The notes beneath the pieces were generated by a model. It saw only the letters and a list, made by a program, of their open reading frames with translations. It ran no database searches and was not told the origin of the DNA. A DNA stretch of 64,000 nt from Chloroflexota bacterium (lineage in GTDB: Bacteria; Chloroflexota; Limnocylindria; Limnocylindrales; CSP1-4). The stretch is taken from assembly GCA_042408925.1 (NCBI GenBank), contig JBHOQO010000139.1:3655-67654 (forward strand), written 5' to 3'. Position 1 is the stretch's first letter, and the number at the start of each line of letters is the position of its first letter. The position numbers and the translations under genes were made by a program. Shown piece by piece: positions 7,853 to 13,435 of this stretch.

Positions 7853-8740
7853 CTACGGCGCTCGCGGGTCGACGAAGCGGCAGCGCGGCGCGACCGGGCA
7901 GGCCCTGCAGTTCGGCCGCCGCGCCTCGCAGATCCGCCGGCCGTGCGTGATCAGGTTGACGTGCGCCTCGTACACCTGGTCGGGCCGCAGCAGTTCCAGG
8001 TAGATGTCGTGGCACTCGTCGGCCGTCGCCGTCGCCGGCACGAGCCCGATCCGCTTCGAGACCCGCTCCACGTGCCGGTCGACCGGCATGAGCGGCATCC
8101 CGAAGCAGAACATGAGGATGACCGAAGCCGTCTTCTTGCCGATCCCGTCGATCGACGTCAGCCAGTCGCGGGCTGCGAGCGGCTCCATCGCCCCGAGAAA
8201 CTCGAGCGAGAAGTCGCCCCGCTCGTCCCGGATCCGGCGCAGCGCGGCGACCAATCGCGGCGCCTTCTGCCGGGCGAGCCCCCCGGGCCGGATCGCCTCC
8301 TCGACCTCCTCGATCGGCGCCTCGGCGATCGCCGCCCAGTCCGGCGCCGGCGCCAGCTCGATCCCGAGCCCGCCCCAGCCGTCGGGCGGCGTCCCGTTCG
8401 CCCGCCGGTCGCCGACGACCGGCCCCGAGCCAGGGAAGCGGGCCCGGAGCGACTCGAAGGCCTGCTCGGCGTTCGTGTCGGCGCTGTTCTGGGCGAGGAT
8501 CGTGAGGACGAGCTCGGACGTCGGATCGAGCCGACGGCGCCAGGTCGGTCGCCCGTAGAGCGTGGCGAGCGCGTCGAGGACGAACGCGACGAGACCGGGC
8601 CGGGTTCGTGCGAGGCGCCGAGCCCAGGTTCGGGCCGGGTTCGCGGGCCGGCGTCGGCGGGTCGGCCGCCGGACCGCACGGGCGGACCGTCTCGGTCGCT
8701 TCGAGCCCTCCGGCGGCGCCGTCTCGACCTCCTCGCTCAC
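7853..8740 (-). CDS. nth: Endonuclease III (HhH-GPD base-excision glycosylase with 4Fe-4S cluster), with a basic N-terminal tail
   Basis: HhH-GPD core: LVLTILAQNSADTNAEQAF...DGIGKKTASVILMFCFGMP. Cluster ligands C-x6-C-x2-C-x5-C: CEARRPNCRACPVAPRC. The proposed GTG start at 8738-8740 overlaps the upstream gene's TGA (GTGA); the rest of the 525-aa track ORF is low-complexity. Confidence 0.7.
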   Translation of the reverse strand: MSEEVETAPPEGSKRPRRSARAVRRPTRRRRPANPARTWARRLARTRPGLVAFVLDALATLYGRPTWRRRLDPTSELVLTILAQNSADTNAEQAFESLRARFPGSGPVVGDRRANGTPPDGWGGLGIELAPAPDWAAIAEAPIEEVEEAIRPGGLARQKAPRLVAALRRIRDERGDFSLEFLGAMEPLAARDWLTSIDGIGKKTASVILMFCFGMPLMPVDRHVERVSKRIGLVPATATADECHDIYLELLRPDQVYEAHVNLITHGRRICEARRPNCRACPVAPRCRFVDPRAP

Positions 8741-9981
8741 GCCCCCGAGTGTAGGGCGACCGAAGCCCCGAGGGAGACGCCGAGGGAGACGAGCCGGGCG
8801 ATCCGTTCGCCGCAGCGCTCGAGCGGCGCCGTCCCCGCCGCCATCGCCTCTGCCACCGAGATCGGCGCCTCGACGACCGGAACGACAACGACCCCGAACT
8901 CGCCGAGATCCCGGATCCCCTCCTCCGTCACCCCGCCCCCGACGGCGACGACGGCCCGCCCGGCCGCCCGAGCCCGTCGGGCGACCCCCATCGCCGTCTT
9001 GCCGAAGGCCGTCTGGGCGTCGATCCGGCCCTCGCCGGTGAGGACGAGGTCGGCCGCCTCGAGCTTCGACTCGAACCCCGTTTCGGCCATGACGAGCTCG
9101 ACGCCGGGCTCGAACCGGAGACTCCCGAAGCGCCCGGCGAGGCAGAGGAGGGCGAAGCCGACCCCGCCGGCCGCCCCCGCCCCCGGCGTCGTCCGTTCCC
9201 GACGGCCGGTCGCCGCCTCGAGCCGATCCGCCCAGCGCGCGAGCATCGCGTCGAGGACCGCGACGTCGCCCGGGGCCGCGCCCTTCTGCGGCCCGTACGT
9301 GGCGGCCGCGCCCGTCGGGCCGAGGAGCGGGTTGCCGACGTCGCAGGCGACCGAGAGCTCCACCTCGGCGAGCCGGGGATCGAGATCCGACAGGTCGACG
9401 GTCTCGAGGGCCTCGACGACCGCCGGCCAACCGCCCCCGCCCGGCAGCCCGTCAGCGGCGAGGAGGTCGCCCGATCGGCCCCGCAGCCGCGCCCCGAGGG
9501 CGACGAGGAGCCCGGCCCCGCCGTCGGTCGTCGCGCTCCCGCCGATCCCGAGGGTGATCCGCCGCGCCCCGCCGTCGAGGGCGGCCCGGAGGAGCTCGCC
9601 CGTCCCCCCCGTCGAGACCCGGAACGGATCGCGCTCGGAGGGCGCGAGCCGCGAGAGGCCCGAGGCCTCGGCGAGCTCGACGACCGCTCCCCGTGCCGCC
9701 CCCGCCGCTGCCTCGAGCCAGCGGGCCTCCACCTCCCGGCCGAGGGGGTCGCGGACCCGTGCCGCCCGCCACGCCCAGCCGCCGGCCGCCTCGATGGCGA
9801 CGAGCGTCCCTTCGCCCCCGTCGGCGAGCGGAGCGAGGAGGACCCGATCCCCCGGCCGGGCCCGCCCCCAGCCGGTCGCCAGGGCCCGAGCGACCTCGAC
9901 GGAGGTGAGCGACCCCTTGAACGAATCCGGCGCGACAAGGACGACGAGGCGAGGCTCGTGTCGAGCGGCCGAGCCCGCCAC
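8737..9981 (-). CDS. glxK: Glycerate kinase (GlxK/GarK family)
   Basis: Strong family motifs: VLVAPDSFKGSL, PLADGGEGT, TLGIGGSATTDGGAGLL, VACDVGNPLLGPTGAAATYGPQKGA, GAGAAGGVGFALL and LVLTGEGRIDAQTAFGK. The GTG start is at about 9979-9981. Confidence 0.8.
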   Translation of the reverse strand: MAGSAARHEPRLVVLVAPDSFKGSLTSVEVARALATGWGRARPGDRVLLAPLADGGEGTLVAIEAAGGWAWRAARVRDPLGREVEARWLEAAAGAARGAVVELAEASGLSRLAPSERDPFRVSTGGTGELLRAALDGGARRITLGIGGSATTDGGAGLLVALGARLRGRSGDLLAADGLPGGGGWPAVVEALETVDLSDLDPRLAEVELSVACDVGNPLLGPTGAAATYGPQKGAAPGDVAVLDAMLARWADRLEAATGRRERTTPGAGAAGGVGFALLCLAGRFGSLRFEPGVELVMAETGFESKLEAADLVLTGEGRIDAQTAFGKTAMGVARRARAAGRAVVAVGGGVTEEGIRDLGEFGVVVVPVVEAPISVAEAMAAGTAPLERCGERIARLVSLGVSLGASVALHSGA

Positions 9982-12011: not shown

Positions 12012-13435
12012 GCGGGCCGACCCTCCGCCACGGGCGCTGCCACCGTCCCCTGCTCGGCCGGCCCGCGCTCGGCCGTCCAGCGCTCGACGAGGTACGGCTT
12101 GAGGAGCTCGAACTGGCGAGCCAGCCGCTCGACCCGCTCCTCGGCCTGTTCGGACGTGGCGGTCCGGTTCTCGACGACGAAGCCGCCGGCCCGGCCGAAG
12201 TAGATCGGGACGAGGGCGGCGACGAGCTCGGCCCGGGGGCGGTCGCGGTGCCCGGCGGCGACGATGAGGTCGTAGACGACCCGGGTCCAGATGTCGTCCG
12301 GGAAGCCGAAGGCGGCGGCCGCCTCGGCCATCTCGAGGGTCGACGGCCCGCCCGACCCGGCGGTCACGCTCGAGAGCCCGAGCCGGGTCCGGGCCTGGTC
12401 GGCGATCGTGCTCGCCTCGGCGGCGAGCTCGAGGACCGCCTCCGCCGTCGCCGGGGCGAGGATCTCCCGCCAGGTCGGGGCGAGGGTCAGGGCACCGGCC
12501 CCGAACTCGGCGAGGAGTCGGAGGGCGTTCACCTCGAGGGGCGGCGGCTCGAGGATCCGCTCGAAGCCGTAGACCGGGACCGGGTGGCTGCCCCGGATCG
12601 GGAGCCAGCGGTCGGCGTGCTCGATGGCGAGCCGGAGCGTCGTCCCGAGGACCTGCCGAAACATCGGCCCGAGGTCGGCCCCGGGGTCCTTCGGGTCGTG
12701 GACCTTCGCCCCGAGCCGGGTCTGGCAGACGGCGAAGCCGCCGATGAGGGCGTGGGTCGTCATCCAGATGTCGATCCCGAAGCGGCTGACGTCCTCGTCC
12801 CAGTCGTCGAGGCTCAGGTAGTGGCGGACGAGGTCGCCGGAAACGCCGAAGTCGCCGCCGATGGGCTGGCGGATCCGGCGCCCGTAGAGGGCCCGGGTCA
12901 GCGGGTAGGTGACGCTGTTCGTGATCGTGCCGTCGAACTTGTAGCGGGCGTAGAGGGGGGCGACGAAGTCGTAGCCGCCTTTGAGGATCGGGCCGGCGAG
13001 GAGCTCGATCCACTCGGGGAGGATCGAGCGGAGGTCGGAGTCGACGACGATGAGGGCCTCGACTTCGAGGGCGGCCGCGATTTCGAAGATCGTTCGGAGG
13101 GCGGCCCCCTTGCCGCCGACGCCGTCGATCTCCGGGTAGGTAAGGCTGAGGCGGGCGAGGCGGTTCGTCGGCCGGACGAGGAGGATCTGCTCGATGTAGT
13201 CGGGCGGCTCGGTCTCGACGACGACCCGCTGGGTCGCATCCGGGGAGCCGGCGTCGGCGTTGACGAGGACGGGCCGGAGGTCGGGGAAGTACTGGACGAG
13301 GCCGGCCTGGGCGGCGCGAACGACGTAGCCGATGGTCGCCGCGTTCTTGTAGCTCGGGATGCCGACCATGATGTCGGCTCGGCCAAGGCGCTCGACCTCG
13401 TCTCGGATCGCCGGGGTGAGGGTCGTCGCGGGCAC
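12008..13435 (-). CDS. GT81-like (GpgS/MpgS-family, GT-A fold) glycosyltransferase paralog with a roughly 170-aa C-terminal extension
   Basis: Collinear with the GpgS fold: IMVGIPSYKNAATIG (where GpgS has SLVLPTLNEEETIG), GKGAALRTIF (GKGEALWKSL), LIVVDSDLRSILPEW (DxD), APLYARYKFDGTITNSVTYPLTRALYG and QPIGGDFGVSGDLV (QPLSGEYA). The N-terminal Ser/Arg-rich part of the 619-aa track ORF overlaps the upstream gene and is treated as an artifact. The start is uncertain. Confidence 0.5.
   Translation of the reverse strand: MPATTLTPAIRDEVERLGRADIMVGIPSYKNAATIGYVVRAAQAGLVQYFPDLRPVLVNADAGSPDATQRVVVETEPPDYIEQILLVRPTNRLARLSLTYPEIDGVGGKGAALRTIFEIAAALEVEALIVVDSDLRSILPEWIELLAGPILKGGYDFVAPLYARYKFDGTITNSVTYPLTRALYGRRIRQPIGGDFGVSGDLVRHYLSLDDWDEDVSRFGIDIWMTTHALIGGFAVCQTRLGAKVHDPKDPGADLGPMFRQVLGTTLRLAIEHADRWLPIRGSHPVPVYGFERILEPPPLEVNALRLLAEFGAGALTLAPTWREILAPATAEAVLELAAEASTIADQARTRLGLSSVTAGSGGPSTLEMAEAAAAFGFPDDIWTRVVYDLIVAAGHRDRPRAELVAALVPIYFGRAGGFVVENRTATSEQAEERVERLARQFELLKPYLVERWTAERGPAEQGTVAAPVAEGRPA

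Follow-up and report, generated by a model that had tools for sequence, protein, structure and literature searches.

The 64-kb stretch of DNA analysed in this study (hereafter the window) comes from a member of the Chloroflexota (Limnocylindrales), has a G+C content of 73% and carries on its minus strand a compact group of four genes, which we read as probably one transcription unit for a glucosylglycerate-type compatible solute. In the direction of transcription these are ggs, for a predicted glucosylglycerate synthase; USP::gpgS, for a GT81 glycosyltransferase of the GpgS type with two USP domains at its N-terminus; glxK, for a class-I glycerate kinase; and nth, for a predicted DNA glycosylase related to endonuclease III (EndoIII) (Table 1). 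The G+C content at third codon positions (0.9-1.0) tracks four successive minus-strand frames, and the frame changes exactly at the reported junctions, which lie at distances of -4, +5 and -4 nt. The four open reading frames (ORFs), their strand, the two GTGA overlaps and the 5-nt spacer, all part of an original prediction made from the DNA letters, are thereby borne out. Overlaps of 4 nt are frequent in the predicted gene list of this genome and are thus an ordinary operon signal, not an oddity. Pfam and NCBIfam searches confirm two USP domains plus GpgS in gene 2, a glycerate kinase in gene 3 and an HhH-GPD glycosylase in gene 4. The best protein matches for the operon genes are all from metagenome-assembled genomes labelled Chloroflexota or Candidatus Limnocylindrales, and an Rfam search of positions 7000-15500 returned no known RNA family.

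Table 1. Coordinates of the four-gene cluster, its junctions and associated features, as positions in the window.
Feature	Position	Strand	Details
ggs, 475 aa	12008-13435	-	GT-A domain ~12536-13384; DSD 13034-13042; C-terminal helical domain ~12065-12526
USP::gpgS, 674 aa	9987-12011	-	USP domain 1 ~11508-11990; USP domain 2 11106-11486; GT81 domain 10059-11000
GT81 motifs of gene 2	DTD 10620-10628; GGGRVTEL 10470-10493; HRNQ 10254-10265	-	
glxK, class-I glycerate kinase, 414 aa	8737-9981	-	PF02595, 388.8 bits
nth-like HhH-GPD/[4Fe-4S] DNA glycosylase (predicted), 295 aa	7853-8740	-	basic N-terminal tail 8561-8740; HhH-GPD 7985-8506
nth motifs	catalytic Lys GIGKKTA 8126-8146; Asp VDRHV 8069-8083; Cys-x6-Cys-x2-Cys-x5-Cys 7880-7930	-	the cysteine motif is CEARRPNCRACPVAPRC
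GTGA ggs/gpgS overlap	12008-12011	-	ggs TGA 12010-12008 on gpgS GTG 12011-12009
5-nt gpgS/glxK spacer	9982-9986	-	gpgS TAG 9989-9987, then glxK GTG 9981
GTGA glxK/nth overlap	8737-8740	-	glxK TGA 8739-8737 on nth GTG 8740-8738
Extended -10-like element TGCTACGGT (predicted promoter)	13442-13450	-	6 nt upstream of the ggs start codon
Four ~50-nt repeat units, 51-nt period	7624-7823	two per orientation	within the 323-nt nth-to-response-regulator spacer
Starts preceded by the TAnnnT motif	7529, 13435, 22846, 23166, 25007, 26893, 48545 region, 50299, 55514		

This arrangement was compared with 80 species-representative Limnocylindrales loci, each count being restricted to loci whose contig reaches far enough. 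Every assessable relative has the ligase-like gene, ggs, USP::gpgS, glxK and nth in this order, and synteny within Limnocylindrales extends from galE to a histidine kinase gene. The ggs-gpgS junction is tight in 73 of 79 loci, 66 of them with a possible 4-nt overlap; one locus has a gap of 150-450 nt, and five are frameshifted or odd. At the gpgS-glxK junction 41 of 65 loci are tight (14 with a possible 4-nt overlap) and 19 have a GNAT acetyltransferase gene inserted, while the glxK-nth junction is tight in 45 of 60 (29 with a possible overlap) and interrupted by a Phd/PIN toxin-antitoxin pair in 11. The conservation of the overlaps at ggs/gpgS and glxK/nth is far above chance. The inserted GNAT gene, 178 aa long in locus L003 (12341-12877), shares 4-nt overlaps with both of its neighbours, and its product is a possible modifier of the solute or of a pathway enzyme. 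The pair of Phd-type antitoxin and PIN-toxin genes lies at 13926-14562 in locus L011 and occurs between glxK and nth in 10 further loci; a similar pair is found elsewhere in the window (23166-23399 and 23396-23773).

A scan with the sigma-70 consensus saw no promoter, and the sole terminator-like hairpin was at chance level. The scan is blind here because the conserved element, TACGGT, is too distant from TATAAT. In our alignment of the ggs upstream regions, TGG-TA[C/G]GGT is the only conserved part of the spacer: in 73-74 of 79 relatives an in-frame start codon follows it at a distance of 6-7 nt. The copy in Table 1 is the only exact TGNTASGGT in the window. The core of the motif, TAnnnT at 6-7 nt from the start codon, precedes ggs in 73 of 79 relatives, gpgS in 2 of 79, glxK in 0 of 65 and nth in 1 of 60. 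Because the motif stands before ggs yet almost never before the other three genes, it is the best available evidence that ggs-gpgS-glxK-nth form one unit. In view of what is established for leaderless genes of high-GC Gram-positive lineages, the element is probably an extended -10 promoter, from which a leaderless mRNA would be made with the ggs start codon at its 5' end. The claim of a single, translationally coupled unit thus draws support from the junctions, from their conservation and from a motif that, among the four genes, stands almost only before ggs; independent promoters or terminators between the genes had been named as what would refute it, and none is conserved.

The same motif stands before flanking genes as well: the ligase-like gene (46/71), the response regulator gene (16/27) and galE (20/61). 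Within the window it precedes 10 of 58 predicted genes, compared with 0.85% of random ATG or GTG codons, and the response regulator gene 3' of nth shows the same geometry, with TGCTATCCT lying 6 nt before the ATG at 7529. Leaderless transcripts therefore seem to be common in this organism, and the motif could serve as a marker for the starts of transcription units. Two other candidate starts were considered and rejected. A codon-score gene finder placed the ggs start at 13471, where the NCBI protein, the N-termini of homologues and the promoter geometry favour 13435; and TACACT, 7 nt before the nth start, looked like an internal nth promoter and is conserved in just 1 of 60 relatives.

Gene 1 was originally taken for a GT81 paralog. 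This assignment has to be revised, since the protein scores only 49.6 bits against the GpgS model NF010496 (cut-off 262) and falls into the Ggs family, with a fold closest to that of the GT78 mannosylglycerate synthase. NF010496 is its only NCBIfam match, no Ggs-specific model having been returned, and its best match to a GpgS structure in the Protein Data Bank (PDB; E = 2e-06) covers the GT-A core only. The family comprises more than 7900 homologues and, at E < 1e-30, 603 clusters at 50% identity; several proteins 76-80% identical to gene 1 are named glucosylglycerate synthase by JGI, and a 100%-identical 475-aa NCBI protein starts at the same GTG, 13435. The AlphaFold2 model (predicted local distance difference test score 82.6) finds its best Foldseek match in the Rhodothermus marinus mannosylglycerate synthase, MGS (2y4j/2bo4), over ~455 columns at TMt 0.67-0.72, a match that covers the GT-A and the C-terminal helical domain, whereas GpgS structures match over the GT-A domain only. 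Sequence identity to MGS is only 15-16%. The Pfam family MGS_GT (PF21969) gives no match to the window protein at E <= 10; with a 77%-identical homologue it reaches 24.4 bits, short of the cut-off of 27. The two-domain fold is the architecture of one-step enzymes that use free glycerate, and the reaction of Ggs joins ADP-glucose and D-glycerate (PMC3736172). Family and predicted fold thus point to a glucosylglycerate synthase (EC 2.4.1.268).

The fusion in gene 2 was read correctly from the start. Its product matches PF00582 in two stretches (85.5 bits against a gathering threshold of 24), is also matched by PF00535, and reaches 371.5 bits on NF010496 (cut-off 262) over profile positions 4-306 of 307. 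All 120 matches listed for it (640-703 aa) have the same USP plus GT2 architecture, so that the fusion is no artefact. GpgS and MpgS structures in the PDB are matched at 1e-75 to 1e-58 with the catalytic motifs aligned: DTD aligns with DAD in Rubrobacter and DSD in mycobacteria, GGGRVTEL is identical, and HRNQ, which includes the metal-binding His, aligns with HRNR and NRHQ. The fused USP domains most likely place GpgS under stress or nucleotide-dependent control; our literature search found no paper linking USP to GpgS. A role in methylglucose lipopolysaccharide synthesis was considered, since the product of mycobacterial GpgS primes that polymer (PMC2674218), and was set aside, as no polysaccharide genes lie nearby.

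The third gene scores 366.2 bits on TIGR00045 (cut-off 168.45) and stays below the cut-offs of both equivalog models, with 268 bits for the 3-kinase (625) and 258 bits for the 2-kinase (686). The synteny of one order cannot show function, and we therefore examined a distant set of 80 metagenome loci with ggs homologues of ~48% identity. In 68 of these loci ggs is followed by a small MscS-like gene (PF05552, 200-235 aa; for example 5458-6081 in L087), and 39 each contain a Methanococcoides-type GpgS and an MPGP-family HAD phosphatase. The loci L081, L083 and L087, assigned at NCBI to Nitrospirae, Blastocatellales and Thermodesulfobacteriota, share this context; their GpgS proteins score 354-378 bits on NF040724, and the phosphatase is above the TIGR02461 cut-off in L087 and slightly under it in L083. 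The distant ggs genes often lie in islands with trehalose synthesis genes, Na+/H+ exchangers and further mechanosensitive channels.

Neither a class-I glycerate kinase nor a GT81 GpgS was found in the 80 distant loci. A glycerate 2-kinase of the unrelated class II (DUF4147/MOFRL) is present in 19 of them, in nine directly upstream of ggs on the same strand, and it adjoins gpgP in 10 of the 14 loci that have both (13 of the 80 plus locus L169). In four loci (L127, L118, L120 and L135) GpgP and the class-II kinase form a single ORF directly upstream of ggs, which in L127 (3292-5466, 724 aa) overlaps the ggs start by 4 nt; we know of no description of such a bifunctional GpgP::glycerate 2-kinase protein. 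In L169, from a 48%-GC organism, Ggs, USP and GT81 GpgS are fused into one 1061-aa polypeptide (P0243, 4916-8101), a fusion with two members, both of this length, on independent contigs. Its gene is directly preceded by a class-II glycerate kinase gene (NF041176, 271.6 bits), beside which stands, in divergent orientation, a gene for an MPGP-family phosphatase (TIGR02461, 248.7 bits against 244.35). Among the other fusions are GpgS-Ggs and Ggs-GpgS, each a singleton, and P0265, a Ggs-TrkA_N (RCK) protein with nine cluster members. A further fused protein, P0248 (1179 aa), is a multi-glycosyltransferase encoded by a transcript of the dinoflagellate Polykrikos kofoidii. That two unrelated kinase families occur in the same context, together with the fusions, argues strongly that a glycerate kinase belongs to the module, and the link that the original prediction drew between a GlxK-family kinase and glucosylglycerate genes is genuine.

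Of the two roles first proposed for the kinase, substrate supply or salvage of glycerate released by hydrolysis of glucosylglycerate, supply is unlikely, since 3-phosphoglycerate is already a central metabolite and formation of glycerate by the reverse reaction is unrealistic. Phosphorylation of glycerate by ATP is, by our own estimate, strongly exergonic, and on these thermodynamic grounds we rejected the kinase as a source of glycerate for Ggs. With a supply of glycerate implausible and a supply of 3-phosphoglycerate needless, salvage or pool control is left.

Enzymes expected to complete or reverse the pathway were sought by motif scan and tblastn over every predicted gene of the window and by Pfam over 42 of the 54 non-operon genes, most of the others being shorter than 200 aa. 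Neither gpgP (HAD-IIB or histidine phosphatase) nor ggH (GH63 hydrolase), whose search the original prediction had recommended, was found in the 64-kb window; a GH13 glucosylglycerate phosphorylase, a class-II kinase and an MscS-like gene were not found there either. The 80 Limnocylindrales relatives likewise have no phosphatase, hydrolase, phosphorylase, class-II kinase or MscS-like gene within 9 kb of their clusters, which extends the earlier statement that no gpgP lies in the cluster.

The product of gene 4 matches PF00730 (48.6 bits against 26.2), and its best PDB matches are endonuclease III (8a5c/8a5f) and ENDONUCLEASE III-1 (4unf) at 8e-42 to 4e-41. It remains under the equivalog cut-offs, with 99.3 against 211.7 bits for TIGR01083 and 161.5 against 400 for the best model, of the D. 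radiodurans DR2438 type, and is predicted to be a Deinococcus EndoIII-1-like DNA glycosylase. Its start, placed in the original prediction at the GTGA overlap, agrees with the relatives, which keep the basic N-terminal tail (for example L011) as well as the possible overlap. As a query, the window protein matched 1 of the 80 distant ggs loci, ~4 kb from ggs, and nth lies beside ggs in none of the 80 nor in L169. Because of this missing association outside the order, and because a toxin-antitoxin pair separates glxK and nth in 11 relatives, nth is best read as a co-transcribed, lineage-specific passenger outside the solute function.

Taken together, we consider it probable, though well short of certain, that the four genes form one transcription unit for a glucosylglycerate-type compatible solute, with two glycosyltransferases, an integral glycerate kinase and nth as a passenger. 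Transcription would begin at the conserved extended -10 promoter and yield a leaderless mRNA whose first codon is the ggs start, and gpgS, glxK and nth would be translated through stop/start coupling. Ggs would join an NDP-sugar directly to free D-glycerate. The GT81 GpgS would join an NDP-sugar to 3-phosphoglycerate, its product then needing a phosphatase encoded elsewhere; such unlinked dephosphorylation of the GpgS product is found in mycobacteria (PMC3240985). The tandem USP domains would subject GpgS to stress or nucleotide-dependent control, the class-I kinase would return free D-glycerate to the phosphoglycerate pool, serving salvage or pool control and not supply, and the EndoIII-like glycosylase would simply be co-expressed.

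Several points weigh against this proposal. The orthology of gene 1 to the characterised Ggs of Persephonella marina rests on names, fold and gene context, and the promoter and the leaderless start are deduced from the conservation and geometry of a motif. In similarity the GT81 domain stands about as near to the dual-specificity Rubrobacter MpgS (43%) as to mycobacterial GpgS (47%), so the sugar could be mannose. The canonical ATP motif, G-2x-G-9x-G(S/T), is present in neither USP domain: domain 2 has MGASA...LFGS, where an Ala replaces the second Gly and the insert is longer, and domain 1 has FGWGG...VFSPT. The GpgS branch is incomplete here, as the window yielded no phosphatase that would act on its product. 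Finally, a kinase that consumes glycerate, co-expressed with a Ggs that needs it, is paradoxical if Ggs works in the synthetic direction.

This paradox is what a cycle of synthesis and mobilisation would resolve. USP::GpgS and an unlinked GpgP would build glucosylglycerate, and Ggs would run mainly in reverse, converting glucosylglycerate and NDP into NDP-glucose and glycerate, which the kinase would trap. We regard such a cycle as possible but unlikely, and we say the same of its corollary, that the flux is steered one way or the other by fused sensor domains (USP or TrkA-N) while the kinase makes reverse Ggs feasible. It would account for the retention, and even the fusion, of two synthases and for the position of the kinase beside ggs, and a glycerate-consuming kinase alongside a glycerate-requiring synthase otherwise makes little sense. 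Kinases of two unrelated families are linked specifically to ggs, ggs is paired with an MscS-like channel gene, of hypo-osmotic function, in 68 of the 80 distant loci, and neither a glucosylglycerate hydrolase nor a phosphorylase was found in the window. However, the P. marina Ggs was reportedly characterised in the synthetic direction by Fernandes et al. in 2007, and the reverse reaction is uphill by ~10-15 kJ/mol in our own estimate, so that the solute would have to be abundant and glycerate very scarce. That some lineages fuse the kinase to GpgP, an enzyme of the synthetic branch, also misfits a purely catabolic pairing. In favour of the cycle, a kinase is reported to accompany the glycerate-releasing glucosylglycerate phosphorylase (PMC7178133). 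That same precedent, together with the conserved stop/start coupling and the linkage and fusion of an unrelated glycerate kinase family to ggs and gpgP elsewhere, makes it very improbable that glxK stands beside ggs and gpgS merely through inherited gene order without functional meaning, an explanation already disfavoured here even though the synteny within Limnocylindrales covers everything between galE and the histidine kinase gene.

That the module makes mannosylglycerate, or both solutes, instead of glucosylglycerate appears to us rather doubtful. The best-scoring solved GT81 relative of gene 2 is the Rubrobacter xylanophilus MpgS (260 bits), which uses both GDP-mannose and GDP-glucose, and the fold of gene 1 is nearest that of a mannosylglycerate synthase. 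Yet gene 2 passes the GpgS equivalog model and its core is slightly more similar to mycobacterial GpgS (47% against 43%), and the resemblance of gene 1 to MGS goes with the low identity and the missing Pfam match given above. It is also improbable that nth, and perhaps the ligase-like gene, is functionally integrated in an operon for desiccation or oxidative stress that combines solute protection with base-excision repair. The position of nth after glxK in 60 of 60 assessable relatives, the possible overlap in 29 of them, the lack of a conserved promoter of its own and the Deinococcus EndoIII-1 type of its closest relatives would fit such an operon. All 80 relatives, however, belong to one order in which the flanks are syntenic as well, the distant loci and L169 are without an adjacent nth, the toxin-antitoxin pair splits glxK from nth in 11 species, and the ligase-like protein has no catalytic lysine and its gene usually a promoter-like motif of its own.

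It had been suggested that the four genes form a previously uncharacterised stress or compatible-solute module. This is too strong. P. marina reportedly has an operon-like ggs-gpgS-gpgP cluster, which Fernandes et al. are said to have described in 2007, and in the window as in P. marina the gene for a one-step synthase acting on glycerate stands beside that for a two-step synthase acting on 3-phosphoglycerate. Distant homologues of the window Ggs reproduce the P. marina-like context, with a Methanococcoides-type GpgS and a HAD GpgP. The window GpgS differs from these in being of the actinobacterial GT81 type, not the Methanococcoides/Persephonella type, and in bearing two N-terminal USP domains, and its cluster, with no linked phosphatase or MscS-like gene, carries additional genes for a class-I glycerate kinase and an EndoIII. 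The catalytic domain of gene 2 resembles those of the mycobacterial GT81 GpgS (Rv1208; 4y6n, 7p5l) and the Rubrobacter MpgS/GpgS (3f1y), with 43% identity to Rubrobacter MpgS and 47% to Mycobacterium hassiacum GpgS, and aligns with the solved enzymes at LPxLNEE, GKGE, DxD, GGGRVTEL and HRN; unlike gene 2, the solved GT81 enzymes have no USP domains. Gene 1 shares its fold over both domains with the R. marinus MGS, which is a one-step enzyme using free glycerate, and differs from it in CAZy family, in sequence and presumably in the sugar. A glycerate kinase also accompanies the glucosylglycerate genes gpgS and gpgP in the clusters of glucosylglycerate phosphorylase (GH13_18), where the adjacency of kinase genes has been noted (PMC7178133); unlike in those clusters, no GH13 phosphorylase was found in the window, and the kinase is linked to Ggs.

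An analogy can also be drawn with sucrose and trehalose metabolism. Sucrose-phosphate synthase and phosphatase as against sucrose synthase plus fructokinase, and likewise OtsAB as against TreT, place an irreversible phosphorylating route beside a reversible NDP-sugar glycosyltransferase, and in those systems a kinase acts on the released aglycone. The analogy concerns the mode of working and not homology, since the enzymes are unrelated and the reverse role of Ggs is hypothetical.

Directly upstream of ggs lies a minus-strand gene (13518-14276, or to 14351) for a protein resembling ATP-dependent DNA ligases (PF01068, 31 bits). The protein is without the motif-I lysine, reading EPLWEG where ligases read EPKxDG, and all aligned Limnocylindrales relatives have EP-x-W-x-G; it appears to be a conserved pseudo-ligase. 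On the other side of the cluster, genes for an OmpR-type response regulator and a HAMP/GAF-like histidine kinase (5162-7529, minus strand) have their own promoter-like motif and are found 3' of nth in many relatives, usually 30-125 nt away. The repeats that fill the intervening spacer (Table 1) mark the 3' end of the proposed transcription unit. They belong to a repeat dispersed over intergenic sites and built on the 20-nt core GTGACGSCSTRGCTGGACAC. It has 10 matches in the window against 0 expected and forms arrays of 51-nt period at 7624-7823 and 25141-25523, each with copies in both orientations; in the second array the core recurs at 25143-25519. The repeat spacer was also considered as a terminator and rejected, as it folds no better than shuffled sequences (z = -1.1). 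Many further intergenic tandem repeats occur in the window, for example at 23853-24029, 38037-38148 and 50117-50204. Elsewhere, a minus-strand gene at 19709-21850 encodes a biotin carboxylase/biotin-carrier protein (acyl-CoA carboxylase alpha subunit) with an N-terminal DNA-binding domain of the MerR/HTH_17 type (residues 13-55), an unusual fusion, and stands in a cluster resembling those of leucine catabolism, together with genes for an HMG-CoA-lyase-like protein, an enoyl-CoA hydratase and a carboxyltransferase.

In summary, all four genes fit known families, and close homologues of both glycosyltransferases are already automatically named in public databases; our literature search found no experimental description of this gene arrangement. 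What goes beyond the systems we found described is the fusion of USP to GpgS, with Ggs, USP and GpgS forming one polypeptide in another lineage; the keeping together, or even fusion, of two supposedly alternative glucosylglycerate synthases; and the building into such modules of a glycerate kinase that comes from one or the other of two unrelated families. A built-in glycerate kinase and a stress-sensor domain on one of the synthases recur in distant bacteria and are apparently undescribed. With four recombinant proteins, turnover and regulation of the glucosylglycerate pool become directly testable, and the leaderless-promoter signature can help annotation by marking the boundaries of transcription units in this lineage. 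If the cycle of synthesis and mobilisation is true, it would provide a metabolic sink for glucosylglycerate in organisms without hydrolase and phosphorylase. The Limnocylindrales are abundant uncultured Chloroflexota of soil and freshwater. Conservation of the operon across 80 species-level genomes makes it likely that they rely mainly on this route for a stress solute based on glycerate.

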